Origin: Deltaproteobacteria bacterium
GTDB lineage: Bacteria; Desulfobacterota; GWC2-55-46
Direction of reading: 5' to 3'
DNA: 64,000 bases
Assembly (NCBI GenBank): GCA_016219015.1
Contig: JACRCL010000032.1
Coordinates: forward strand, 26,588-90,587
Position numbers and translations under genes: made by a program. The notes under the pieces were generated by a model that saw only the letters and a program-made list of their open reading frames with translations, was not told the origin of the DNA and searched no databases. Of the stretch, positions 2,500 through 58,702 are shown piece by piece (within the stretch, counting starts at the first letter, position 1; the number at the start of each line of letters is the position of its first letter).

Positions 2500-2692
2500 C
2501 AATCCATGGAAGGATTGCCAAATTGCGAGGCTTAAAAGCCGGGCAATTTGTGAGACTTGGACGGATTTATTCCGGCCAAGTCGTTGTTGAAAAAGCCATG
2601 GATGGACTTTTTCAATATGATAGTACGTCGAGGATTTTCCTTAGGAGGACAACAAAGTATAAAGACATTTATTGCGTTCGCATAGAGGGTAT

Positions 2693-3406
2693 ATGACGGT
2701 CATATTGGACAAAAACTCGATCTGCTCTCTCTGCCAGTGCCACATAAGGGAGAATGCGCTTTTCACGGGGCTTAACGAGAGCCAGCTCGACGCGTTCAAG
2801 GACGTGGTCGTAATCTCCTCGTTCAAGAAGCGCGAGATAGTGTTCATGGAGGGGGACGACTGCACCGGGCTCTATATCATAAGGACGGGCAGGGTAAAGG
2901 TGGTAAGGTCCTCGTCCACGGGAAAAGAGCAGATAATAAATATCCTCAACCCCGGAGACCTCCTCGGCTTCGAGGTCTTCTACGAGGGGAAGCTCTACAG
3001 GAACACGGCCGTGGCCATGGACGACTGCGAGCTCTGCTACATAGACAAGAACTCGTTCTTCAACATACTGGAGAAAGAGCCGGACGTGTCCAGGAAGCTC
3101 ATAATCTCGCTCGGCAAGGAGCTTAACCACGCCTACGAGAGGATCGGCAACCTCGGCCTGCTGAACGCCAAGGAGAAGCTCGGGCACCTCCTCTACACGC
3201 TCGCCTCGGAGTACGGGGTGAAGGCCGACGGGGGCGTCAAGCTCCAGCTCACGCTCTCCAGGCTTGAGATAGCGGAGCTGCTGGGCATAACGCAGGAGAC
3301 CTCGATAAGGCTCCTTAAGAGCTTCAAGGAAGACGGCATCCTCGACATAAAGAGGAAAGAGATAATAATAAAATCCCTGGCCAGGCTCAAGGAGTTCGGC
3401 CAATAG
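2693..3406 (+). CDS. Crp/Fnr-family transcriptional regulator with an N-terminal Cys cluster (FNR-like)
   Basis: It has a cNMP-binding-type beta-roll (FMEGDDCTGLYIIRTGRVKV) and a C-terminal HTH (RLEIAELLGITQETSIRLLKSFKEDG). An N-terminal C-x2-C-x-C motif (CSLCQCH) and a later Cys are present. I chose the ATG at 2693, which follows the RBS-like agaggg; the ORF track extends to a TTG at 2672. Confidence 0.8.
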   Translation: MTVILDKNSICSLCQCHIRENALFTGLNESQLDAFKDVVVISSFKKREIVFMEGDDCTGLYIIRTGRVKVVRSSSTGKEQIINILNPGDLLGFEVFYEGKLYRNTAVAMDDCELCYIDKNSFFNILEKEPDVSRKLIISLGKELNHAYERIGNLGLLNAKEKLGHLLYTLASEYGVKADGGVKLQLTLSRLEIAELLGITQETSIRLLKSFKEDGILDIKRKEIIIKSLARLKEFGQ

Positions 3407-3453
3407 GGACAAGTCCGACAAAAGCGCGTCCCGCGCGCAGACACTGACCTTTC

Positions 3454-4872
3454 ATGGCATTTTCCATCCGCACAAGGCTGACCTTCTGGTACGTGACTCT
3501 CCTCACGGTGAGCCTCCTTGCCTTCGGGGCGGCCTTCTCTTATTCGCTTGCCAAGACCTTCATGGACCATACCGACAGCCAGATAAGCTCGGTTGCGAAC
3601 ATGATGGTCCATACCGTCATAAAGCCTTCGGGGCAGCTTTTCCTGCCAAGGGACTTCGACATAATCCTCGAGAGGTTCTTCGGCATAAGGACCGCCGGCA
3701 ACTACATCCAGGTCCTCGACCCGCACGGCCAGATAGTGGCCAAGTCCTCGAACCTCGAGACCTTCAGCATGCCGCTCGTGGGCGCGACATACCACGCCGC
3801 CATCGGCGGGGCCACGACCTTCGAGATAGTCCGTAACGTCGGCAGGTACCCGGTGAGGGTCGTCACCAAGCCGATAATACTGAAGGAAAAAGGGCTTGTG
3901 GCCATTGTGCAGGTCGGCAGCTCGCTGGAGGGGATGGACGAGATATTCCATTCGCTGGCGTACATCTTCATCCTCGCGATAATCGCATCGGTCCTCATAT
4001 CCGGCTTCATCGGGTGGGCCCTGGCGCGCAAGGCCTTGAAGCCCGTGGCCGAGATAACGAAGACCGCGCGCAGGATCGGGGCCGAGAGCCTCAACGAGAG
4101 GATAAACATAACGGTCCCGCAGGACGAGATAGGGATGTTAGCCTCCACGATAAACGAGATGATGGAGAGGCTCGAGAAGTCGTTCAAGCAGATAAGACAG
4201 TTCACGGCCGACGCCTCGCACGAGCTTAAGACCCCGCTGACAATACTAAAGGGCGAGATGGAGATAGCGCTGCGGTCAAAGGACAACGTGGAGTACATGA
4301 AAGAGGCCTTGAATAGCAGCCTCGAAGAGATAGACAGGATGAACGACATAGTGAGGAACCTGCTTGACCTCGCGAAGATGGACGTTGAGAAGGGTGCGGT
4401 GCCGAAAGAGCCGGTGGACCTTGAGAAGGTCTTGAGCGACAGGTACGAGCAGTTGAAGAAGGTCGCCCTTGACAGCGGGATACACATGGCTATCCTCAGA
4501 AGTAAGCCCCTTATCGTAAGCGGCGACGCCGTAAGGATAGGCCAGCTCCTCTCCAACCTCATCGACAACGCCATCAAGTACACGCATAGGGGAGGGGCCG
4601 TCGAGCTTTCGCTTGACAGCGACGGGGGCTCGGCCGTGTTCATGGTGAGGGACACGGGGGTGGGCATCTCGAAGGAGGACCTGCCCTATATATTCGACAG
4701 GTTCTACAGGGTGGACAAGGCCCGTTCGCGCGAGGTCGGCGGCGCGGGCCTCGGGCTTTCGATATGCAAGGAGATAGCCGAATCTCACGGCGGCTCGCTC
4801 GAAGTGGACAGCGCCCACGGGCAAGGCTCGACGTTTACGGCGCGCCTCCCGCTCGCGGCGCAGACCGCCTGA
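3454..4872 (+). CDS. Two-component sensor histidine kinase (periplasmic loop, HAMP, HisKA, HATPase_c)
   Basis: Two hydrophobic transmembrane segments. H-box ADASHELKTPLT, N-box LLSNLIDNAIKYT, and G-boxes RDTGVGIS / GGAGLGLSICKEIAESHGG are all present. Confidence 0.9.
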   Translation: MAFSIRTRLTFWYVTLLTVSLLAFGAAFSYSLAKTFMDHTDSQISSVANMMVHTVIKPSGQLFLPRDFDIILERFFGIRTAGNYIQVLDPHGQIVAKSSNLETFSMPLVGATYHAAIGGATTFEIVRNVGRYPVRVVTKPIILKEKGLVAIVQVGSSLEGMDEIFHSLAYIFILAIIASVLISGFIGWALARKALKPVAEITKTARRIGAESLNERINITVPQDEIGMLASTINEMMERLEKSFKQIRQFTADASHELKTPLTILKGEMEIALRSKDNVEYMKEALNSSLEEIDRMNDIVRNLLDLAKMDVEKGAVPKEPVDLEKVLSDRYEQLKKVALDSGIHMAILRSKPLIVSGDAVRIGQLLSNLIDNAIKYTHRGGAVELSLDSDGGSAVFMVRDTGVGISKEDLPYIFDRFYRVDKARSREVGGAGLGLSICKEIAESHGGSLEVDSAHGQGSTFTARLPLAAQTA

Positions 4873-4915: not shown

Positions 4916-5030
4916 AGGCTGCTCAAAAAGCTCCGGATGCGAGGCGTCAAGGAGCGAGGAATGAGGCGTGCTCTCCTTGCGTTATGACAAGACGAAGACA
5001 ACAAAGCAGACGGGCTTTTTCAGCAGCCTG
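4916..5030. repeat. Family-A MITE/REP-like element (copy A5, subfamily 2), inverted relative to A4
   Basis: Ends are aggctgctcaaaaag and ctttttcagcagcctg. The interior is the reverse complement of the interior of the copy at 16860-16975. Confidence 0.7.
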
Positions 5031-5054
5031 TACCACAAAAAGGAGGGCTTATAA

Positions 5055-6089
5055 ATGAACATAGGGATACTTACAGGCGGCGGCGACTGCCCGGGGCTTA
5101 ACGCCGTGATAAGGGCGGTGGTCAAGCGCGGGCTCCAGTTCGGATATGAATTTACCGGCATAAGGGACGGCTGGAGGGGCCTCATACAGCCAAAGCCGTC
5201 CACCATGAAGCTCACCCGCCAGGCGGTATCGGGCCTGCTGCCTCTCGGGGGGACCATACTCGGCACGTCGAGGACAAACCCCTTCAAGGACCCGAAAGAC
5301 ACGGAAACGCTCCTCAGGAACATAAAAGACCTCAAGCTCGACGCAATCATCTGCATAGGCGGGGACGATACTTTGTCCGTTGCCGAGAAGCTCTTCGCCA
5401 GGGGGATAAAGACCATAGGCGTGCCGAAGACCATAGACAACGACCTTTCGGGCACGGACTTCACCTTCGGGTTCGACACAGCCGTAAGCATAGTCACGTG
5501 GGCGCTCGACAGGCTCCACTCCACGACCGAGGCGCACCAGAGGGTCATGGTAGTCGAGGTAATGGGCAGGCACGCCGGCTGGATAGCGGTCTACGGCGGG
5601 ATAGCCGGCGGGGCCGACGTGATACTGATACCCGAGAAGCCCTTTGACGTTGAAGAGGTCTGCGGGTACATAAAAAAGAGGAAAGAGGCGGGCAAGAACT
5701 TCAGCCTCGTCGTTGCCGCCGAGGGCGCGTACCCCAAGGAGGCGGGCGGCATGATAACGAAGGACAAGGAGCTCGACGCCTTCGGCCACGCGAAGCTCGG
5801 GGGCGTCGGGGAGTTCCTCGCAAGCGAGATAGAAAAAAGGCTCGGGCTCGAGTCCCGCTTCGTTGTCCTCGGCCATTTGCAGAGGGGCGGCACGCCCACG
5901 GCCTACGACAGGGTACTCGCCACGCGATTCGGCGTGAGGGCCATAGAGATGGTCAACGAGGGCAAGTTCGGCAGGATGGTCGCGCTCCAGGGCAATAAGA
6001 TAGTCGATATATCGCTCCAGGAGGCCACAGCCAAGCTCAAGACCGTGGATATGGAGATGTACCGGACGGCCCAGATATTCTTCGGCTAA
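5055..6089 (+). CDS. pfkA: ATP-dependent 6-phosphofructokinase
   Basis: N-terminus MNIGILTGGGDCPGLNAVIRAVV, plus the ICIGGDDT and MGRHAGW motifs. RBS aaaggaggg sits 5 nt upstream of the ATG. Confidence 0.93.
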   Translation: MNIGILTGGGDCPGLNAVIRAVVKRGLQFGYEFTGIRDGWRGLIQPKPSTMKLTRQAVSGLLPLGGTILGTSRTNPFKDPKDTETLLRNIKDLKLDAIICIGGDDTLSVAEKLFARGIKTIGVPKTIDNDLSGTDFTFGFDTAVSIVTWALDRLHSTTEAHQRVMVVEVMGRHAGWIAVYGGIAGGADVILIPEKPFDVEEVCGYIKKRKEAGKNFSLVVAAEGAYPKEAGGMITKDKELDAFGHAKLGGVGEFLASEIEKRLGLESRFVVLGHLQRGGTPTAYDRVLATRFGVRAIEMVNEGKFGRMVALQGNKIVDISLQEATAKLKTVDMEMYRTAQIFFG

Positions 6090-6212
6090 CAGGCTGCTGA
6101 AAAAGCCCAATCTGCGGCGTCGTCTTCAAAATTCGTCACTGCGGCGTACAAAGTACGCCGCCTCATTCCTCATTTTTCGACTCCTTGCATCTTAGACTTT
6201 TTGAGCAGCCTG
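6090..6212. repeat. Family-A MITE/REP-like element (copy A1)
   Basis: 16-bp terminal inverted repeats caggctgctgaaaaag and ctttttgagcagcctg flank a conserved ~90-bp core (..gtcgtcttcaaaattcgtcactgcggcgtac...cattcctcatttttcgactccttgcatcttagac). It starts 1 nt after the pfkA stop. Confidence 0.8.
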
Positions 6213-6240
6213 ATGCGATTTGAGTCTTTTAGCGATACCT

Positions 6241-7856: not shown

Positions 7857-7878
7857 ATAATATTACGGTTTTTTTTAA

Positions 7879-8003
7879 CAGGCTGCTGAAAAAGCCCTGT
7901 TCTACCGCGTCGTCTTCAAAATTCGTCTTTGCGGCGTACAAGGCAAGTACGCCTCATTCCTCATTTTTCGACTCCTTGCATCTTAGACTTTTTGAGCAGC
8001 CTG
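7879..8003. repeat. Family-A MITE/REP-like element (copy A2)
   Basis: Same terminal inverted repeats and core as A1. It sits in the 5' leader of lepA. Confidence 0.8.
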
Positions 8004-8058
8004 TTTGTGATTTTGAGTTTTTTCAACCTGTTAAAAAAACGCTTTATACCGGAGGAAA

Positions 8059-9883: not shown

Positions 9884-10549
9884 TTGGGAACAGCCGAGAA
9901 GAAGGACAAGAAGAAACATTTCAGGGATATAGCCGAGGCCGTTATAATAGCCTTGATTTTAGCGCTCCTTATAAGGGCGTTCATAATACAGGCCTTCAAG
10001 ATACCCTCGGGCTCGATGGAGGACACGCTCCTCATAGGCGACCACATAATCGTAAGCAAGTTCGCCTACGGCCTGCAGGTCCCTCAGCCGGCCGTGATAA
10101 AGGTGCTCGGCGCGTCGGTCCCGTTCTTCGAGACCAGGCTCGTGACCTCGTGGGGGGAGGTAAAGAGGGGCGACGTGATAGTATTCCGTTTCCCCGGCGA
10201 CAGGTCCAAGGACTATATAAAGAGGGTCGTGGGCCTTCCGGGCGACAAGGTCGAGCTCAAGAACAAGGCCATCTATATTAATAACGAGAAGTGGGAGGAC
10301 CACTGGGGGGTCAACAAGGGCGGGCTCTTCGGTGAGGAGTCGGACAGGAACACTAACTTCGGCCCCTACACCGTGCCCGAAGGCTCCGTCTTCGCGATGG
10401 GCGACAACCGCGATAGAAGCTTCGATTCCCGCTACTGGGGGCCCGTGCCCATCAGGGACATAAAAGGGAAGGCGATAATCATCTACTGGTCGTGGAACAA
10501 GGACAATCACTGGGTCAGGTTTGATAGGATCGGCAAGATCATACATTAG
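9884..10549 (+). CDS. lepB: Signal peptidase I
   Basis: TTG start. Catalytic Ser region PSGSMEDTLLIGD, plus GDNRDRSFDSRYWGPVP (box E). Immediately downstream of lepA, the conserved arrangement. Confidence 0.9.
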   Translation: MGTAEKKDKKKHFRDIAEAVIIALILALLIRAFIIQAFKIPSGSMEDTLLIGDHIIVSKFAYGLQVPQPAVIKVLGASVPFFETRLVTSWGEVKRGDVIVFRFPGDRSKDYIKRVVGLPGDKVELKNKAIYINNEKWEDHWGVNKGGLFGEESDRNTNFGPYTVPEGSVFAMGDNRDRSFDSRYWGPVPIRDIKGKAIIIYWSWNKDNHWVRFDRIGKIIH

Positions 10550-10675
10550 CAGGCTGCTGAAAAAGCCCAATCTGCGGTGTCGTCTTCAAAATTCGTCACT
10601 GCGACGTACGGACAGAAGTACGTCTCATTCCTCATTTTTCGACTCCTTGCATCTTGGGACTTTTTGAGCAGCCTG
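10550..10675. repeat. Family-A MITE/REP-like element (copy A3)
   Basis: Begins 1 nt after the lepB stop. Same terminal inverted repeats and core as A1/A2. Confidence 0.8.
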
Positions 10676-10777
10676 CTGTTGAGTTTTTTAACGGCCTTTT
10701 AGATTTTTCAGCATAAATACAGGGAAAACACTTAAAAAACCATTGAAGGTTTCGCGTTTTGATGTTATAAGGCAAAA

Positions 10778-15815: not shown

Positions 15816-15934
15816 TTTTTGTCGATACGGGTGGGTCGCAGGTTGATCTTTCACCCTCAATTCACCCTCCTCTCAATCCCCTCCCATCTTAGGGAGGGGA
15901 GGAATTAAAATCAAATCGAAACAGCGGAGCATAG

Positions 15935-16852: not shown

Positions 16853-16859
16853 AATTTAG

Positions 16860-16975
16860 CAGGCTGCTCAAAAAGTCCATCTGCTTTGTTGTCTACGTCT
16901 TGTCATAACGCAAGGAGAGCACGCCTCATTCCTCGCTTCTCGACGCCTCGCATCTGGAGCTTTTTGAGCAGCCTG
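16860..16975. repeat. Family-A MITE/REP-like element (copy A4, subfamily 2)
   Basis: Perfect terminal inverted repeats caggctgctcaaaaag / ctttttgagcagcctg. The core is a diverged relative of A1 and the inverted counterpart of the copy at 4916-5030. Confidence 0.75.
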
Positions 16976-17079
16976 AGCAAGATTTGAGTTTTTAGCAACC
17001 ATTAAATTATAATATGTTACAGCAGTTATTTGATAAAAAATTTTAAGTATTGCATTAGACAATAAGGCATAAAGGAGAA

Positions 17080-20375: not shown

Positions 20376-20420
20376 GATCGTACCTTTAACAATTGACAGC
20401 CGCTGGAAACTTTGGAATTT

Positions 20421-20554
20421 CTGATTAATTCGCAGCCGCATGTCATTCTGAGCGTGTGAGCCGAAGCCCTGAGCGAAGCGAAGGGGAAGAATCTCATGGT
20501 AAAAAAAATCAGCAGTTACGAGATTCTTCGGTCGCTCCGCTCCTTCAGAATGAC
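20421..20554. repeat. Family-B palindromic element (copy B2), inverted relative to B1
   Basis: ctgattaatt...gtcattctgag...ttcagaatgac. The interior is essentially the reverse complement of 541-653. It ends 20 nt before the folK ATG. Confidence 0.7.
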
Positions 20555-23456: not shown

Positions 23457-24347
23457 TTGAAAAAGGTCGGGCTTGTCGTAAAGGTCAGCAACCCCGAGGC
23501 CATAAAGCTGGCCGACGAGATAGCCGGATGGGTCACTGAAAGGGGAGGGGAGGTCTTCGCGGACAGGACGCTTGCGGGCATGGTCAGGCTCGGCCTTGCC
23601 GGGGTGCCCGTAAACATCGTAGCCCCGGAGAAGTTCCCGGACTCCATAGAGCTTTTGATAGTGCTCGGCGGCGACGGCACGATGCTCCACGCCGCGAGGC
23701 TCCTTGACGGCAGGAAGGTCCCGATACTCGGAGTAAACCTCGGGAGCCTCGGCTTCCTTACGGCCATCACCGTCAAAGAGGTCTTCCCGCTGCTCGAACG
23801 GATATTCAGGGGCGACTGCGTCGTGGAAGAGAGGATGACGCTCTCGGTGGAGCTTAAGAGGAAGGACGGGGGCGTGATGAAGCACACGGTCTTGAACGAC
23901 GCCGTCATAAAGGGCGAGGCCGCCCGGCTCGTGAGGCTGGAGACCCGCATCAACATGGAATACGTGAACACCTACAGGGCGGACGGCCTTATCGTTGCCA
24001 CCCCGACGGGCTCGACCGCGTATTCCCTCTCGGCCAACGGGCCGATACTCTACCCGACCATACACTCGATAATCGTTGCGCCCATCTGCCCGTTCAACCT
24101 GACCAACAGGCCCGTCGTCATACCCGACTGGATGACCGTGGACGTGACCGTGAGCCCGGACCAGGCGAACGTGGAGCTGATACTCGACGGGCAGGTCGAG
24201 GTGCCGCTTGAAAGCGGGGACATGGTAAGGATAAAGAGGGCGCAGGCGAGCGTATACCTGATCAAGTATGAAGGCAAGAGCTATTTTGATATACTCAGGG
24301 AAAGGCTCATGTGGGAGGTAAAGACCAACAGGAGCGGCAAGGCTTAG
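23457..24347 (+). CDS. nadK: NAD kinase
   Basis: GGDGTML motif, plus NDAVI and the conserved C-terminal region. TTG start. Confidence 0.88.
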   Translation: MKKVGLVVKVSNPEAIKLADEIAGWVTERGGEVFADRTLAGMVRLGLAGVPVNIVAPEKFPDSIELLIVLGGDGTMLHAARLLDGRKVPILGVNLGSLGFLTAITVKEVFPLLERIFRGDCVVEERMTLSVELKRKDGGVMKHTVLNDAVIKGEAARLVRLETRINMEYVNTYRADGLIVATPTGSTAYSLSANGPILYPTIHSIIVAPICPFNLTNRPVVIPDWMTVDVTVSPDQANVELILDGQVEVPLESGDMVRIKRAQASVYLIKYEGKSYFDILRERLMWEVKTNRSGKA

Positions 24348-24348
24348 C

Positions 24349-24366
24349 AGGCTGCTGAAAAAGTCC
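24349..24366. repeat. Solo left inverted repeat of a family-A element (truncated copy A6)
   Basis: agcaggctgctgaaaaag overlaps the nadK stop. No matching right end or core follows. Confidence 0.5.
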
Positions 24367-24401
24367 ATCGGCTAACAGCGGTTTTTTCTATTTTTTAAAC
24401 T

Positions 24402-28660: not shown

Positions 28661-28944
28661 CGTGACCCCCGTCACTGTTTGCGCCCGCCCTTGTATTATA
28701 GACTGCGGGTGTTTTGAGGCGACCCGCAGAGGGACGATATAAAACTTGACTTCATGGGCGCCTTTATGCTAAGTAAGCAATCCTGACCGGCCTGAAGACC
28801 GACAGGCGCTTAAAAACTCAAAGAAGGCAGTCCGCATCAAAGCCATTCACACCCGCGGCAATCGGCCGCTCCACGCTACACCGTTTCAGATTCAAGGAAA
28901 ATTTTTCAGGACCGGTAAGGAACCACCGCTTTTTTGATCTTAAG

Positions 28945-29015
28945 GGTGCCTCTAAAAAGCAGGAATTTTTTCTGAAGTCAGAGGTCAGGGAAAAGAACAA
29001 TTTTTACAGGCAGCC
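28945..29015. repeat. Family-C MITE-like element, short form (copy C1)
   Basis: ggtgcctctaaaaagcaggaattttttctgaagtcagaggtcagggaaaagaacaatttttacaggcagcc. It shares its ends and the core gaattttttctgaagtca...gaggtcagggaaaagaacaattttta with the copies at 56899 and 58375. Confidence 0.65.
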
Positions 29016-29043
29016 TTAAAAAAAATGGAAGGGGGGTCGTAAA

Positions 29044-29928
29044 TTGGACAAACGATTCCTTACGCTCTTCGTTCTTACAAACGACGCTTCCAGACCGAGG
29101 CAGCTGAGGATACCTTTCAAATTCCTCAAGGCCGGCGTAACCGCCGCCGTGCTCCTCTTCGCGGTCTTGACGTTCGTAGTATTCGACTACGCCAGGATAA
29201 GGACGCACAGCGTCGAGCGCTACGAGGTGCAGGGCTTCGCCTCTAAGATAAGAGAGCTTGAGTCCCAGATAGCCAAGCTCAGCAACTTCGACAGGAAGAT
29301 ACGCATAATCGCCAACATCGGGGATCCGAAAGGCGCGAAGGATACGGACGTCATGACGGGCATGGGCGGGGGCTCGCCCGCCGAGGACGAGGCGTACATG
29401 GACGGCGCCGCAAACGGCGGGGACCTCGTCGACAAGATGCGCTCCGATATAAAGGACCTCGAGGACAGGGCCGCCACGCAGGAGAAGAGCTTCACGGAAC
29501 TGCAGGGTTATCTGATGAAGCAGGCCTCTTTCCTCGCCTCGACCCCTTCGATATGGCCGTCGCGCGGGTGGGTCACCTCGACCTACGGGCAGAGGATATC
29601 ACCCTTTACCGGGAACCCGCAGATGCACAAGGGCATGGACATAGCCAACCGGATCGGCACGCCCATCGTCGCGTCCGCCGACGGGATAGTCGTTGCGGCG
29701 GGCCCGGACCCGGGGCTCGGAATGACGGTGGTAATATCGCACGGCTACGGGATAAAGACGGTCTACGGCCATCTCGACAAGGTCCTTGTCCACGCGGGGC
29801 AGAAGGTAAAGAGGGGCCTGGAGATAGCCACGATGGGCAATACGGGCCGCTCCACGGGCCCGCACCTACATTACGAGGTATCCCTGAACGGGGTGGCTGT
29901 AAACCCTTCAAGGTATATAATCAACTGA
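29044..29928 (+). CDS. M23-family metallopeptidase (LytM domain), membrane-anchored
   Basis: TTG start after RBS ggaaggggg. N-terminal transmembrane segment, coiled-coil, then C-terminal HKGMDIA...GYGIKTVYGHLD...GNTGRSTGPHLHYEV (HxxxD / HxH Zn motifs). Confidence 0.88.
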   Translation: MDKRFLTLFVLTNDASRPRQLRIPFKFLKAGVTAAVLLFAVLTFVVFDYARIRTHSVERYEVQGFASKIRELESQIAKLSNFDRKIRIIANIGDPKGAKDTDVMTGMGGGSPAEDEAYMDGAANGGDLVDKMRSDIKDLEDRAATQEKSFTELQGYLMKQASFLASTPSIWPSRGWVTSTYGQRISPFTGNPQMHKGMDIANRIGTPIVASADGIVVAAGPDPGLGMTVVISHGYGIKTVYGHLDKVLVHAGQKVKRGLEIATMGNTGRSTGPHLHYEVSLNGVAVNPSRYIIN

Positions 29929-30005: not shown

Positions 30006-30145
30006 CAGGCTGCTGAAAACCGTTTTAGTACGTCATTCTGAGCGTAGCGAAGAATCCCAGAGCTGATAGAAACAACAAGTAACGGGATTCTTCGTCGCCT
30101 CCGGCTCCTCAGAATGACAACTTCGTGGACTTTTTGAGCGGCCTG
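30006..30145. repeat. Composite repeat: family-A inverted-repeat ends enclosing a family-B-type core
   Basis: caggctgctgaaaac ... gtcattctgagcgtagcgaagaatccc ... gggattcttcgtcgcctccggctcctcagaatgac ... ctttttgagcggcctg. Confidence 0.7.
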
Positions 30146-30277
30146 TTTAAGGGTATTCGCGCCGTTTTTTTCCCTTTTAGCCTGTAGAAAATTCAGTATA
30201 ATTATGCTATTATGCTATATTGTGTTAAAATGCCCGGCAACATATACTTGGATGAAAGGATAATACCCGGACGATAA

Positions 30278-33039: not shown

Positions 33040-34248
33040 ATGCCGCCGAAGAAGAAAAGACCTTCCGCCGAGTTCGCGGTGCCCGGCTTCAAGGCCGCGG
33101 GCATTGCCTGCGGCATCAAGAAGAACGGGAAAAAAGACCTCGCCCTTATATTGAGCGACGGACCCGCGAGCGTGGCCGGGCTTTTTACCACGAACAGCGT
33201 CAAGGCCGCCCCTGTGCTCCTTGACATGAAAAGGGTCAGAAAGGGCGTATCCAGAGGCGTCATAATAAACAGCGGGAACGCCAACGCGTGCACCGGCAAG
33301 CCCGGATACGAGGCTGCCGCCGCCATGGCTACACTGGCTGAGCGGGCCTCGGGCGCTAAAAAAGGCTCCATCATGGTCGCCTCCACCGGGGTCATCGGCG
33401 TGCCTTTCCCGATAAAGAAGGTCGAGGCCGGGATATCCTCACTCGTCGGGTCTTTAAGCTACTCGGGGATGAAGAGCGCGGCCGAGGCGATAATGACCAC
33501 CGACGCATTCATGAAAAAGGCGTCCGCAAAGGTCAATATCAACGGCAGGAAGGTGACCATAGCCGGGATAGCCAAGGGCGCGGGCATGATATGCCCCGAC
33601 ATGGCGACGATGCTCGCCTTTTTCGCGACCGACGCGGAGATAAAGGCCCCGGCCCTCAGGAAGGCGCTCAAGCTCGCCGCGGACGCCTCGTTCAACAGCA
33701 TAATAGTGGACAACGACACCTCTACCAACGATACCGTCATGGCCTTCGCCAACGGCTGTTCGGGATGCGGGGAAATAAGGCCCGGCACAAAGGAGTTCGC
33801 GGCGTTCGAGCGCGCGTTAAGGTCCGTCTCGCTTGATCTTGCCCACATGATAGTCAGGGACGGCGAGGGGGCCACGCGCTTTATCGAGATAGACTTGAAG
33901 GGCGCGGCCTCGGTTGCCTCCGCCCGGAAGGCCGCGAGGACGATAGCCGAGTCCTTCCTCGTCAAGACCGCCTTTTTCGGGGGAGACCCGAACTGGGGCA
34001 GGATATTGGCCGCCCTCGGCAGGTCCGGTGTAAGGATGAGGGAGGAGAAGGTAGATATCTCCCTGAACGGGGTCCAGGTAGTGAAGAAGGGGCTCGACAC
34101 GGGCAGGGAGCGGGAGGCCGCGAAGGCGATGAAGGAAAAAGAGGTCAGTGTCTCGGTAGCCCTGAATATCGGGCGGCACTCCGCAAAACTCTGGACCTCC
34201 GACCTTTCTTTCGAGTACGTTAGGATAAACTCGGCGTACAGGACTTAA
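33040..34248 (+). CDS. argJ: Bifunctional glutamate N-acetyltransferase / amino-acid acetyltransferase ArgJ
   Basis: Autoproteolytic site context ATML (..GMICPDMATMLAFFATD), N-terminal FKAAGIACGIKKNG and conserved C-terminal TSDLSFEYVRINSAYRT. Confidence 0.92.
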   Translation: MPPKKKRPSAEFAVPGFKAAGIACGIKKNGKKDLALILSDGPASVAGLFTTNSVKAAPVLLDMKRVRKGVSRGVIINSGNANACTGKPGYEAAAAMATLAERASGAKKGSIMVASTGVIGVPFPIKKVEAGISSLVGSLSYSGMKSAAEAIMTTDAFMKKASAKVNINGRKVTIAGIAKGAGMICPDMATMLAFFATDAEIKAPALRKALKLAADASFNSIIVDNDTSTNDTVMAFANGCSGCGEIRPGTKEFAAFERALRSVSLDLAHMIVRDGEGATRFIEIDLKGAASVASARKAARTIAESFLVKTAFFGGDPNWGRILAALGRSGVRMREEKVDISLNGVQVVKKGLDTGREREAAKAMKEKEVSVSVALNIGRHSAKLWTSDLSFEYVRINSAYRT

Positions 34249-34259
34249 AGGAGGTATTT

Positions 34260-34682
34260 ATGGAGCTTCTCTTCAAAGAGGCCGACAGGTGGCTCAGGCA
34301 GGCGGAATACGACCTGAAGGCCGCGGAATGGAACCAGCAGGGCGGCTTTTTCGCCCCGGCCTGCTTCCTCGCGCAGCAGAGCGCGGCTAAATCGCTCAGG
34401 GCTTTTCTCTTCCTCAACAGGGAGGACGCGAGGGAGACAAGGTCGGTAGCCGACCTCCTCGACAGGGCGATGACCTATGAGGAAGAGTTCGGCAAGTTCG
34501 CGGGCACGTCCAAGGGCCTCGACCTTTACTACAAGACCTCGCGCTTCCCGGACGCGCTTCCGGGCGGGATACCCGCCGAGATAATATCCGGGAAAGACTC
34601 GCGGGACGCCATAAAGCAGGCTTCGGACATAATCTCGATAGTCGAGAAGAAGAGGAAGGGCTATCTCCCTGAGACCCTGTAA
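34260..34682 (+). CDS. HEPN-domain protein (stand-alone)
   Basis: 140 aa after a perfect RBS aaaggagg. N-terminal segment LRQAEYDLKAAEW...FFAPACFLAQQSAAKSLRAFL is typical of the HEPN fold. No adjacent nucleotidyltransferase (MNT) gene. Confidence 0.6.
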   Translation: MELLFKEADRWLRQAEYDLKAAEWNQQGGFFAPACFLAQQSAAKSLRAFLFLNREDARETRSVADLLDRAMTYEEEFGKFAGTSKGLDLYYKTSRFPDALPGGIPAEIISGKDSRDAIKQASDIISIVEKKRKGYLPETL

Positions 34683-34735
34683 AGGGGACGGCGCAAGGCC
34701 GGGTTCCTTCAAAGCCGTAAACATGGCGGTCATAG

Positions 34736-45283: not shown

Positions 45284-45598
45284 GCCGGGAAGTTCCCTGT
45301 GGTTTGCCGCGGGGTTCCCTGTAAAACCCCTCCCCCTTGACGGGGGAGGGTAGGGTGGGGGTGAAATGGGTTGTCGGTTTACGGTTATCGGTTATCAGCA
45401 GATAACGGACAACCGATAACTGATAACTTTCAAAAAAAACTCACCCTCCCCTCAGTCCCCTCCCGTCAGGGAGGGGAGATTAAGTAGATACCCCGGGGCT
45501 TGCTCCGGGGGGGCATAATAAAACTTTTCAGATTTTCCTAAATTTTTTTTTTGCCCGTCCGATATTATATATAATTATGTATCAATTAAAAAAATAGA

Positions 45599-45627
45599 TT
45601 GACATTTAAACCATATTGGAATAGATT
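45599..45627 (+). promoter_or_regulatory. Putative sigma70 promoter for the HTH-pilMNOPQ unit
   Basis: ttgaca, 17-nt spacer, tagatt, inside a ~200-bp AT-rich tract. Confidence 0.35.
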
Positions 45628-45753
45628 TCAATCAACTATCCTGAAAGCAGGCATAAGTTTGAGTAAAATAGCTGAAATTCCGGTAAATTCCCGTTATGTG
45701 ACTTTGGTGCTTGTTTTATGAACAGAAATAATCTAAAAAAGGTAAGAGAGAAC

Positions 45754-45915
45754 ATGCTCCTCTCGAAATCCGAGCTGGCTCGGAAGGCCGGTATCTCGCC
45801 TCTGACGATAGACAGGATAGAGAAGGGCTACCCGTGCAGGGTCGACACCAAGAGGAAGATCCTCCAGGCGCTGGGGCTCAGGGTAACCGATAAGGGGAAG
45901 GTATTCACGGAGTAA
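45754..45915 (+). CDS. Small XRE-family helix-turn-helix protein
   Basis: MLLSKSELARKAGISPLTIDRIEKG is an HTH_XRE signature. The ATG at 45754 follows RBS gagag. The track ORF starts at 45718 with no RBS. Confidence 0.6.
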   Translation: MLLSKSELARKAGISPLTIDRIEKGYPCRVDTKRKILQALGLRVTDKGKVFTE

Positions 45916-45924
45916 CGGGGGTTT

Positions 45925-46995: not shown

Positions 46996-47564
46996 TACGC
47001 ATAAACCTCCTGCCCGTAAGGGCCGCCAAGAAAAAAGAGTCCATGAGGTTCCAGGTCACGGTAGCCGGCCTCATCACCTTCTTCGTCTTCGCCGTCTCCA
47101 TGGTCGCTTATTTCACCGTGAGGGGCGAGGCCAACTCCTTAAGCGACCAAATTTCGCGCGGGAACCAGGAGATAGAGGAGCTCAAGAAAAAGATAGGCGA
47201 GCTCTCAAAGATAAAAGAGCAGAAGAGGATAGTCGAGGAAAAACTCAAGATAATAACCGACCTCGAGGCCGCGCGCACCGGCCCGGTGAAGCTCTTCAAG
47301 AGGATCAGCGGGGCCATCCCGGAGAAGGCCTGGCTCCAGTCCATGAAGGACGACGGCTCGCTCGTGGTGTTGAAGGGCTACGCCGCCGACGACGAGATCG
47401 TGGCGGACTTCATGCGGGGCCTCCAGAAGAACAGGGAGCTCGGCAGCGTGGAGCTCGAGATAGCGCAGAGGATGATGGAGAAGGAAACCGGCATGGAGCT
47501 CGTGAGCTTCACCATAAGGCTTGAGAAGGAAAAGGAGAGGCCCGTACAGAGGGAGAAGAAGTAG
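46992..47564 (+). CDS. pilN: Type IV pilus assembly protein PilN
   Basis: N-terminal MIRINLLPVRAAKKKE, a single transmembrane segment and a coiled-coil. Overlaps the pilM stop. Confidence 0.85.
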   Translation: MIRINLLPVRAAKKKESMRFQVTVAGLITFFVFAVSMVAYFTVRGEANSLSDQISRGNQEIEELKKKIGELSKIKEQKRIVEEKLKIITDLEAARTGPVKLFKRISGAIPEKAWLQSMKDDGSLVVLKGYAADDEIVADFMRGLQKNRELGSVELEIAQRMMEKETGMELVSFTIRLEKEKERPVQREKK

Positions 47565-48185
47565 ATGGCGATACCCCTGAAGATAAACCTTGACTCGGTG
47601 ATAAAGCTCCCGCTGCCCAAGAGGATAATGATCCTCGCGGCGGTGAACATCGTCATAGTCGGCGCGGTCTACTGGTTCCTCATAGGCCCCAAATACACCG
47701 AGGTTAAGGGCCTCCGTGGACAGCTCCAGGAGTTGAACGTAAAGCTCACGGAGAACAGGCTGATTGCCGCCGACATACCGAAATACATCCACGACAAAGA
47801 GGAGATGGAAGACAAGCTCAGGAACGCGGTCGCCCAGCTCCCTAACGAGAAGGAGATACCCGACCTTATCGACAGCATCAGCAGCGCCGGAGAGAAGTCG
47901 GGCCTCAAGATACTCATCTTCAAGCCCGGCAAGGAGGTCAAGAAGGGCTTCTACGCGGAGGTCCCGGTGAGCATGTCCGTCGAGGGCAAGTTCGAGAGCC
48001 TCTACGACTTCAGCGACAAGGTCGGGCATTTCCCGAGAATAGTAAACATATCCGGGATGGACATATTATCCACCGGCCACAGGAACAGGGTGCCGGTGCT
48101 GAAGGCAAGCTTCACCGCCACTACCTTCAGGTTCATACCGGCCCCTCCCGAGGGAGCGCAAGCGCAAGGAGCGCCTAAAAAATAA
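47565..48185 (+). CDS. pilO: Type IV pilus assembly protein PilO
   Basis: Single transmembrane segment, coiled-coil, ~200 aa. Its position between pilN and pilP supports the call. Confidence 0.8.
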   Translation: MAIPLKINLDSVIKLPLPKRIMILAAVNIVIVGAVYWFLIGPKYTEVKGLRGQLQELNVKLTENRLIAADIPKYIHDKEEMEDKLRNAVAQLPNEKEIPDLIDSISSAGEKSGLKILIFKPGKEVKKGFYAEVPVSMSVEGKFESLYDFSDKVGHFPRIVNISGMDILSTGHRNRVPVLKASFTATTFRFIPAPPEGAQAQGAPKK

Positions 48186-56380: not shown

Positions 56381-56824
56381 ATGGACATTAAGGACATTAA
56401 AAACATATACAAGTTCCTTAAAGAGACGGACATAGTCGAGTTCGAGCTTGAGGGGCAGGACGGCAAGGTGAGGATAAAAAGGGGCGTTGCCGCCATGGAG
56501 ATGCCCGCGCCCGTGATAATGGAGAGAGAGGCCGCGAAAGAGGCGAAGAAGGAAGAGCCTGTTGAGAAGAAGCCCGAGAACGTAAAGATAATAACCTCGC
56601 CCATGGTAGGCACGTTCTACAGGTCGCCCTCCCCGGAGGCCCAGTCCTTCATCGAGCTCGGCTCCATAGTCAAGACCGGGCAGACGATGTGCATAATAGA
56701 GGCGATGAAGCTCATGAATGAGGTCGAGAGCGAGTATAACGGCAAGGTGATTTCCGTCCTCGTCGAGAACGGCCAGCCTGTCGAGTACGGCGAGCCGCTC
56801 TTCCACATAGAGGTCTCGAAGTAG
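56381..56824 (+). CDS. accB: Acetyl-CoA carboxylase biotin carboxyl carrier protein
   Basis: Biotinylation motif [10 protein letters not shown] and a lipoyl/biotinyl C-terminal domain. Confidence 0.92.
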
Positions 56825-56898
56825 AGATAATAAATATCGGTTCCCGGCCTTGACGCCTTTCCAACCGGTCCCCGGCCGCAATCCCAAGCAAAGAAAGG

Positions 56899-57032
56899 AA
56901 GCCTCTAAAAATAAAAATTAGGAATTTTTTCTGAAGTCAAGGAAGGGCGGAAATAAAAAGCGCAGCATTTGTCCATTTTTATTTTCGGCCTGACGCAGAG
57001 GTCAGGGAAAAGAACAATTTTTAGAGGTAGCC
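56899..57032. repeat. Family-C MITE-like element, long form (copy C2)
   Basis: gcctctaaaaa...gaattttttctgaagtca[60-nt insert]gaggtcagggaaaagaacaatttttagaggtagcc. It ends 6 nt before the accC ATG. Confidence 0.7.
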
Positions 57033-57038
57033 GAAAAT

Positions 57039-58373
57039 ATGTTCAACAAGATACTAATAGCCAACAGGGGCGAGATCGCCATAAGGGTAATAAGGGCGTG
57101 CAAGGAGATGGGCATAAGGACGCTGGCGGTGTATTCCGAGGCGGACAGGGAGGCCCTGCACACGAGGTTCGCGGACGGCGCCATCTGCATCGGCCCGGCC
57201 AAGAGCGCCGACAGCTACCTGAACGTCACCTCGCTCATAAGCTCGATGGAGGTCGCGGACGCCGAGGCCGTGCACCCCGGCTACGGTTTTCTTTCCGAGA
57301 ACGCGAGCTTCGCCGAGGCCTGCGAGAAATGCGGCATAAAGTTCATAGGCCCGACGTCCGCCACCATGCGCCTTATGGGCAACAAGGTACAGGCCAAGAA
57401 GACGGCCGAGGAGCTCAAGGTCCCGGTCCTGCCGTGGTCGAACAGGGCGCTTAGCGACGAGAAGGAGGCGATAGAGGTCTCCAAGAAGATAGGCTTCCCG
57501 GTGCTCATCAAGGCGGCGAGCGGCGGGGGCGGCAGGGGCATGAAGCTCGTCCATACGCAGGCGAGCCTCGCCAGCGCCTTCAACATGGCGAAGACCGAGG
57601 CGATCGCGGCCTTCGGCGACGGGGAGGTCTTCATCGAAAGGTTCTGCGAGCTGCCGCGCCATATAGAGATACAGATAGTGGCCGACGAGCACGGCAACGT
57701 CATACACCTGGGCGAGCGCGAATGCTCCATCCAGAGGAGGCACCAGAAGATACTCGAGGAATCCCCCTCCCCGCAGGTCGACAAGCGCCTCCGGCATAAG
57801 ATGGGAGAGGCGGCCGTAAAGCTCGCCAAGGGGATAAACTACACGAACGTCGGCACGGTGGAGTTCCTGCTCGACAAGGACAAGAACTTCTACTTCATGG
57901 AGATGAACACGAGGGTCCAGGTGGAGCACCCCGTAACCGAGATGGTCACCGGCGTGGACCTCGTTAAGGAGCAGATAAGGATAGCGGCCGGACAGAAGCT
58001 AAGACTCAAGCAGAAGAACGTCGAGTTCAAGGGGCACAGCATAGAATGCAGGATAAACGCCGAAGACCCGAGGACATTCATGCCGTCGCCGGGCAAAATA
58101 ACCGAGCTCGTCTTCCCGGGCGGGCCCGGCGTAAGGATTGACGCGGCCATTTATTGCGGCTACAACGTCCCGCCCTACTACGACAACCTCCTTGCGAAGC
58201 TCATAGTCCATGCCGAGACAAGGGCGGACGCCATCATACGCATGACCAGGGCGCTCGAGGAGTTCCACATAGGGGGGATAAAGACCAATATACCCCTGCA
58301 CCTCAAGATAATGAAGGACCACGACTTCATAGCCGGCAAGACGGACATAGACTTCCTTTCAAGGTTTACTTAA
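57039..58373 (+). CDS. accC: Acetyl-CoA carboxylase biotin carboxylase subunit
   Basis: [26 protein letters not shown], an ATP-grasp domain and C-terminal [14 protein letters not shown]. Confidence 0.96.
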
Positions 58374-58374
58374 G

Positions 58375-58501
58375 GCTACCCCTAAAAATTGTTTTTTTTC
58401 CTGACCTCTGCGTAGGGAAAATAAAAATGGGCATTTGCTCCGCTTTTTATTTTCGCCCTTCCTTGACTTCAGAAAAAATTCCTTTTTTTTTAGAGGCAGC
58501 C
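58375..58501. repeat. Family-C MITE-like element, long form (copy C3), inverted relative to C2
   Basis: It starts 2 nt after the accC stop (58373). It is the reverse complement of C2 at high identity (ggctacccctaaaaattg...tttttagaggcagcc). Confidence 0.7.
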
Positions 58502-58702
58502 TTAAAGCGGCGCACAGGTTAAACCCGCCTGAATCCCCTCTTATGGCGCCGGGCCTGTATTGAGCGGCATTCTGCCAGGAATTTTGTGTTTTTCCTTAAT
58601 ATTCCCCCATATTCCTCCGATATGTACTATAAATCGTTTTCGTGGCAAATCCCGGCGAATTAGAGTAGAATATATTGGATATTTTATTCTACGAGGTCTG
58701 TT

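Follow-up and report, generated by a model that had tools for sequence, protein, structure and literature searches.

Two copies of a previously undescribed MITE family bracket accC in an uncultured deltaproteobacterium, probably through separate insertions

[quoted passage not shown] They can also flank and move cargo, as do the identical MITEs on either side of class 1 integrons in Acinetobacter, or IR148, which mobilised mcr-5 (PMC10969869). Here we describe a MITE family, family C, in a stretch of 64,000 nucleotides (the window) from Deltaproteobacteria bacterium (assembly GCA_016219015.1, contig JACRCL010000032.1, positions 26,588 to 90,587 of the forward strand), where two of its copies, C2 and C3, enclose the biotin carboxylase gene accC. 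Family C resembles the Correia elements of Neisseria (CREE), ERIC, Chunjie of Geobacter uraniireducens and QMITE of Coxiella: like them it is shorter than 500 bp, non-coding, AT-rich, intergenic and multicopy, with terminal inverted repeats, short duplications, size variants due to internal deletion and a long stable hairpin in the transcript, and like them it frequently lies in 3' untranslated regions (UTRs) or just 5' of genes (PMC10969869). It is not known to share sequence with any of these named MITEs and is confined to an uncultured lineage labelled 'Deltaproteobacteria' or Thermodesulfobacteriota. The duplication of Correia elements is TA, unlike that of family C, which is of 4 bp and TTAA-like; neither a promoter nor an IHF site was detected in family C.

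C2 and C3 are very probably two separate insertions of one non-autonomous transposon with terminal inverted repeats, and the bracketing of accC is then a by-product of the density of such elements. The locus comprises the following features, in window coordinates, together with a third and shorter copy found elsewhere in the window. L022 denotes the closest relative among 39 comparison loci, which carry the prefix L.

56381-56824, plus strand: accB (biotin carboxyl carrier protein), the gene 5' of C2; Pfam Biotin_lipoyl, E 3.5e-22
56893-56896: left target-site duplication of C2, GAAA, the same as 57033-57036; the empty site in L022 is TAAGGAAAAATATG
56897-57032, plus strand: C2, a family-C MITE of 136 bp in sense orientation to accBC; matches C3 at blastn E 7e-31 and the family profile at nhmmer E 1.4e-38
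57024-57028, plus strand: GAGGT within C2's right terminal repeat, a candidate for the Shine-Dalgarno sequence of accC; spacing of GAGG to the ATG 11 nt, predicted unpaired probability 0.02-0.05
57033-57036: right target-site duplication of C2, GAAA, matching the left one
57039-58373, plus strand: accC (biotin carboxylase); Pfam Biotin_carb_N, CPSase_L_D2 and Biotin_carb_C; 94% identity to P0001
58370-58373: left-hand target-site duplication of C3, TTAA, overlapping the accC stop codon TAA; from the flank alignment
58374-58501, minus strand: family-C MITE copy C3, 128 bp, antisense to accC (the minority orientation); nhmmer E 3.8e-34, and blastn
58502-58505: right-hand target-site duplication of C3, TTAA; from the flank alignment
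28944-29015, plus strand: short family-C copy of 72 bp, derived by internal deletion, both terminal repeats being intact; from the alignment, with TTAA at 28940-28943 and 29016-29019

The inverted pair around accC had been pointed out in an initial annotation of this DNA. The pair is real, at coordinates shifted by about 1-2 nt, and its similarity survives alignment, 113 nt being aligned and 90% identical (blastn E 6.8e-31); the two copies were also recovered as the inverted-repeat arms I3 and I7 in a repeat search of the window. C2 does end 6 nt 5' of the accC ATG (57039), as had been claimed. C3 had been placed 2 nt past the accC stop codon (58371-58373) and in fact abuts it, the first G of the element having been overlooked. 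The shorter version, which had been given as 28945-29015, spans 28944-29015 and keeps both arms, the central 64 nt being gone. The terminal motif GGCTGCCTCTAAAAA (15 nt, up to 2 mismatches) has 6 matches in the window, which are exactly the six ends of these elements; shuffled sequence is expected to give 0.13, and 0 of 100 shuffles reached 6. A search with nhmmer and the family-C profile found no copies in the window beyond the three. AccC itself is intact, with 444 aa and a C-terminus (...SRFT) shared with its relatives.

Copies of family C measure 72-143 bp, apart from one of ~227 bp in L034 that owes its length to an internal insert. The family is non-coding, as the copies are set apart by 5-nt and 13-nt indels that rule out a conserved reading frame. 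The terminal inverted repeats are 17 bp long, GGCTGCCTCTAAAAATT against AATTTTTAGAGGTAGCC, and complementary at 16 of 17 positions in the consensus. With the copies aligned together with their flanks, a 4-bp direct duplication appears directly outside the terminal repeats. It is perfect in nine copies (TTAA in six of them, and TATA, TACA and GAAA), and because these 4-bp flanks differ between copies they are duplicated target and not repeat. A 2-bp duplication of the TA type, with repeats AGG...CCT, was rejected, since the GAAA/GAAA of C2 fits 4 bp without an extra coincident mutation. C2 carries a 5-nt duplication, and it may have lost its mobility because its outer, left terminal repeat is degenerate (GGAAGCC, not GGCTGCC). 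The element as a whole folds as one long imperfect hairpin (-42 to -65 kcal/mol, z -5 to -10); C2 folds into a single long hairpin of -46 kcal/mol (z -5.3), and the 72-bp copy reaches -26.9 kcal/mol (z -4.6). The internal hairpin proposed in the initial annotation, CCTGACGCAGAGGTCAGG, is present in C2 and most other copies but is broken in C3, L010 and L014 (CCTACGCAGAGGTCAGG), and in the minimum-energy fold it is the left arm with which its bases pair. The window yielded no tRNA genes. The label 'MITE-like' given to these repeats is borne out by their size, their lack of coding capacity, the terminal repeats, the varying duplications, the dispersed copies, and their presence or absence at orthologous sites. 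Family C is a MITE, for which every defining feature that could be tested was found and the autonomous parent alone is missing; it is a previously undescribed family of the ordinary kind.

The comparison with relatives rests on AccC homologues, whose contigs provided 10 orthologous loci. Gene order is kept in the 10 relatives as pepP-accB-accC-lplA-TPR, as far as each contig reaches and with or without elements. In L022 (AccC 94% identical in amino acids, accC 86% in nucleotides), a MAFFT alignment shows both insertion sites empty, with ...TTTTTAAGGAAAAATATG upstream and ACATAGATTTAAGCGG downstream of the gene. In L023, L025-27, L035 and L038 the accB-accC spacer is 67-79 nt long and the accC-lplA spacer 177-199 nt (L036, whose contig begins 61 nt 5' of accC, was counted for the latter only), against 214 nt and 329 nt in the window. 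Subtraction of the element with its duplication (140 nt) from the accB-accC spacer leaves 74 nt, in agreement with the unfilled spacers. The excess length of the accC-lplA spacer is made up of C3 (132 nt including the duplication) and of ~70-80 nt 3' of it (58506-58585, AGCGGCGCACAGGTTAAACCCGCC...GGAATTTTGTG), which have no counterpart in L022 and are not repeated in the window.

These observations bear on two other ways of reading the locus. The initial annotation had likened it to a composite transposon with a mobilisable accC. On such a reading the outer repeats of C2 and C3 would act jointly, and accC would have been moved, or be movable, as a unit of 1605 bp (56897-58501). The outer ends, GGAAGCCTCTAAAAA and TTTTTAGAGGCAGCC, do constitute a correctly oriented terminal-repeat pair, mobilisation of cargo by flanking MITEs is documented (PMC10969869), and here, as in those composites, two copies of one MITE surround a functional gene. 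However, after composite transposition the unit as a whole would lie within one duplication, and no such duplication exists: the outer flanks differ (GAAA and TTAA), and C2 and C3, which are 10% diverged, each have a matched duplication of their own (GAAA/GAAA and TTAA/TTAA), so the locus fails this test. Nor is accC in a new context, as it stands in the ancestral order pepP-accB-accC-lplA in all relatives and is in place between two empty sites in the closest of them; unlike the cargo of the known composites, it is a housekeeping gene that keeps its ancestral neighbours. The outer repeat of C2 is in addition the most degenerate of the ends (2 of 15 positions mismatched), and the same kind of bracket surrounds pfkA and other housekeeping genes. 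Past movement of accC as a C2-accC-C3 unit is already contradicted, and we regard such a unit, past or potential, as highly improbable.

The proposal that the segments are ordinary conserved UTRs of accC, or intrinsic terminator or promoter sequences, and not mobile repeats, has next to no chance of being right. It would account for their exact position at gene boundaries and for their strong folding, but at least eight orthologous loci lack the segments at the same positions, and 14 unrelated loci carry them beside unrelated genes such as modA. A promoter and terminator scan made no call inside C2 (56897-57032) or C3 (58374-58501). A TTGACT within the element has, by eye, no acceptable -10 partner, and the terminator function that had been suggested is not supported, as the hairpin is followed by UUAAAGCGG instead of a U-tract. 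Judged on the sequence comparison, the UTR reading is already refuted by the empty orthologous sites.

How two separate insertions would come to bracket a gene can be outlined as follows. A transposase supplied in trans would cut at the 17-bp terminal repeats GGCTGCCTCTAAAAATT, and the element would be pasted into a staggered 4-bp cut, with a preference for TTAA-like sites of the form T-N-N-A; the enzyme, which was not found in the window or the 39 loci, is probably a DDE transposase of the IS5-like kind. In a genome of 57% G+C, TTAA-like sites would concentrate in short AT-rich spacers and in T+TAA stop codons, and since insertions within genes would be lethal, the surviving copies would lie exactly at gene edges. 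C3 would have taken the TTAA that contains the accC stop codon, which is preserved because the left copy of the duplication retains it, and C2 the GAAA located 2 nt 5' of the start codon of accC. That accC is bracketed would follow from target preference, selection and element density, and not from a unit of mobility.

The sequence data fit this outline. TTAA occurs at 5.6 per kb outside coding sequence and 1.45 per kb inside it (a 3.9-fold difference), and T+TAA ends are found in 3 of 51 window genes, accC among them. All 17 family-C copies are intergenic, about eight of them no more than 20 nt from a stop codon and six no more than 30 nt from a start codon. A preference for insertion sites at gene boundaries, which the initial annotation had listed among its possibilities, is the right explanation, given the TTAA-type duplication of 4 bp and the 17 of 17 intergenic sites, several of them beside a stop codon. 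Interspersed repeats occupy 12 of the 45 spacers of the window, so that 53 x (12/45)^2 = 3.8 bracketed single genes are expected under independence; three are seen.

5055-6089: pfkA, which lies between inverted copies of a second family, family A
29044-29928: gene for an M23 peptidase
57039-58373: accC

Single genes bracketed by MITE pairs also occur in L001, L028 and L034.

Family C is not restricted to this genome. Copies were sought with the arm sequence common to all three window copies, as a 19-mer against representative genomes and with one base more against JGI metagenomes. The representative genomes yielded nine copies in one metagenome-assembled genome, JAUSLB01 ('Deltaproteobacteria bacterium E14_metabat.bin.95'), plus a single copy in a second, MGPQ01 (GWB2_55_19), and the metagenomes five further places, two of which repeat the MGPQ01 site. 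Together with a diverged copy in L034, this makes 17 independent insertion sites: three in the window, nine in JAUSLB01, one in MGPQ01, three more on JGI metagenome contigs and one in L034. Between genomes, family-C copies are 87-97% identical over aligned columns, accC is 83-86% identical in nucleotides, and the accB-accC spacers can hardly be aligned between lineages. As the copies are more alike than accC, the family is younger than the splits between its hosts; it would have spread after these lineages separated, through recent activity or horizontal transfer, which fits the empty orthologous sites. A 13-nt apical segment is missing from all the window copies, which are 89% identical to one another. 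Exact-protein look-ups of the window AccC and AccB returned no record.

The likely source of the transposase can be approached through known insertion sequences (ISs). Elements of the IS5 group and their eukaryotic relatives, PIF/Harbinger-Tourist, have ends that start with GG, duplicate 4 bp and prefer targets that are palindromic and AT-rich, namely YTAR in the case of IS5 and TWA in that of PIF/Tourist. Family C is like the IS5 group in that its repeat starts with GG, its duplication is of 4 bp and its TTAA preference fits YTAR. Unlike IS5, it has targets outside YTAR (TATA, TACA and GAAA), its terminal repeat is not known to resemble the IS5 repeat past the leading GG, and no transposase gene accompanies it in the window and the 39 loci.

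Several observations weigh against the reading of C2 and C3 as two insertions of an ordinary MITE. The window and all loci were searched for a parent IS with the terminal repeat at up to 2 mismatches, and with relaxed inverted pairs GGYTRCY..AAAA located 0.6-3 kb apart, and no autonomous parent with matching terminal repeats was found: all matching pairs at that distance enclose housekeeping genes, none a transposase. The minus-strand open reading frames (ORFs) 5049-6110, 2669-3421, 34245-34733 and 47205-48029 were tried as transposases and discarded, as they have no Pfam hit; ORF 5049-6110 is the shadow of the plus-strand gene pfkA and hence no transposase. The duplications are imperfect in L012, L014 and L030 (one-base decay), and the ends are eroded in L001, L003 and L019. 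Finally, in L034 (AccC 91% identical) accC is bracketed again, by family C upstream and family A downstream, which could hint at something locus-specific. The diverged family-C copy of L034 (2259-2485) carries an internal insert of ~70 nt and lies 15 nt before the ATG, with flanks TGAA/TGAG; its site differs from that of C2 and is empty in L024 (1363-1485). The family-A copy (3836-3957) lies directly past the accC TAA stop codon. A locus-specific hot spot at accC is unsupported, as one family-C hit among 10 orthologous spacers is compatible with the spacer occupancy of the window.

A further possibility, compatible with a MITE origin, is that the family-C hairpin has been exapted and is kept because it stabilises the transcript, offers RNase III/E a processing site or modulates translation, in which case the hairpin in the accB-accC spacer would tune the AccB:AccC ratio. 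We consider this unlikely, and several lines of evidence pull in opposite directions. In 12 of 12 complete copies (for example L010 950-1091 and window 56897-57032), the sense strand, in the orientation of C2, is predicted to exceed the antisense strand in stability by 6-25 kcal/mol, owing to its 2-7 G.U pairs against 0-2; yet this asymmetry goes back to one master copy and hence amounts to a single event. Among 16 informative copies, 13 are sense to their neighbouring genes on a gene map scored by codon usage (two-sided binomial p ~0.02), but the bias could equally stem from transposition bias relative to replication, and C3, one of the three antisense copies, sits in the less stable orientation. 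Pairing is kept in 16 of 26 one-sided substitutions within predicted pairs (counted manually from the pair table), whereas RNAalifold finds compensatory double changes in 0 of 48 pairs. The accB-accC spacer of L034 received its own independent insertion, and there are precedents for orientation-dependent effects on mRNA in Correia and ERIC (PMC10969869); against this, most relatives do without any element at accC, and Rfam holds no matching family, with no match at E<=1 on the locus nor at the gathering threshold across the whole window. The predicted strand asymmetry and the orientation bias hint at selection at the RNA level and do not prove it.

A stable hairpin between two cistrons of one operon also recalls REP/BIME sequences, such as the REP between malE and malF, and by analogy the family-C hairpin could stabilise the upstream message and reduce downstream expression. 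REPs are mobilised by RAYT (Y1) transposases. Unlike REPs, which have neither, family C has terminal repeats and target duplications.

For the expression of accC the two insertions are likely to have had consequences. In the accBC transcript, a hairpin of about -45 kcal/mol is predicted, with its end 6 nt 5' of the accC ATG. In L022, a Shine-Dalgarno sequence AAGGA lies 5 nt 5' of the accC ATG; in the window the matching position has been shifted upstream by ~140 nt, so that accC must rely on another initiation signal. The initial annotation had suggested the GAGG at the right end of C2 as ribosome-binding site. This motif is indeed present in the right repeat, but its spacing to the ATG is long, at 11 nt (10 nt for GAGGT), compared with 2-10 nt for most of the clear Shine-Dalgarno motifs in the window, where about one third of genes show none; and it is predicted to be more than 95% base-paired, being unpaired 2-5% of the time in the partition function, with the accC start codon ~60% open. 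GAGG is thus a possible but weak candidate. Translation of accC would have to use this mostly paired GAGGT, or AAAGGAAG at the 5' foot of the hairpin, which would come near the ATG once the stem forms, or the A-rich GAAAAUAUG, on which initiation would do without a Shine-Dalgarno sequence. A Shine-Dalgarno sequence and a start codon brought together across the base of a hairpin have a precedent in phage T4 gene 38. The strongest form of the RNA proposal, less likely still than exaptation in general, is that the hairpin works in RNA in an orientation-dependent manner, that its independent capture in the accB-accC spacer of two lineages re-tunes the AccB:AccC ratio, and that accC is translated from an element-built ribosome-binding site, be it the terminal-repeat GAGGT or a Shine-Dalgarno sequence that meets the start codon across the hairpin base. 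At the DNA level, the inverted C2 and C3 would provide a substrate for RecA-mediated inversion of accC; no inversion was observed.

Other features of the accC neighbourhood vary between branches. Its conserved spacers have been struck by different MITE families in different lineages, and L038 carries a family-A copy (1740-1874) in the pepP-accB spacer. Relatives on the GWB2_55_19 branch have a terminator-like hairpin followed by a T-run (GGTCTGAG...TCAGGCCTTTTT) in the accB-accC spacer, at these positions:

L023, ~600-640
L027, ~2955-2990
L034, 2225-2250

These relatives also have a clear terminator (GCCGGGGC...GCCCCGGCTTTTTT) after accC. The branch of the window and L022 has neither the spacer hairpin nor the terminator after accC.

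The window contains at least two further repeat families. Family A (CAGGCTGCTSAAAAAGYCC ... CTTTTTGAGCAGCCTG, ~115-150 nt) has terminal repeats that resemble those of family C (GGCTGC..AAAAA). No clear target duplication could be defined for it; the bases before its left end are CTAA, TTAA or TTAG, and for three copies they are the stop codon that closes the gene upstream (pfkA, 6087-6089, and genes ending at 10549 and 24347). The third family, family B, contains TGTCATTCTGAGGGAGCGGAGTGACCGAAGAATCTCGTAAC. The copies are as follows.

4916-5030, minus strand: family A
6086-6237: family A
7869-8028: family A
10546-10709: family A
16855-17000: family A
24344-24373: family A
540-730: family B
20414-20554: family B
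30070-30152: family B
L039, 5033-5184: family B, in the lplA-TPR spacer of this relative

Family B has arms of 141 nt at 541-681 and 20414-20554, with 87% complementarity between them. In L019 (3380-3530), a family-C copy has had both terminal repeats replaced, and on its left it abuts ...TTTTTGAGCAGCCT, which is like the right end of family A; this arrangement suggests nested or adjacent insertions. The spacers 15816-15934 and 45284-45924 share a blastn match (E<1e-5) outside families A, B and C.

The accC locus offers a clean example of how, in a compact, GC-rich genome, a TTAA-type target preference and purifying selection bring mobile elements to lie exactly at the boundaries formed by start and stop codons, and of how the placement of mobile elements at gene edges can mimic a 'cassette'. 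To what is known of an uncultured lineage it adds a MITE family that had not been described, together with two or more sister families. Elements of the family-C type will fragment assemblies and confuse the annotation of UTRs. The locus is also a natural experiment, in which the leader of an essential gene has been replaced by a hairpin of -45 kcal/mol ending 6 nt from the ATG.

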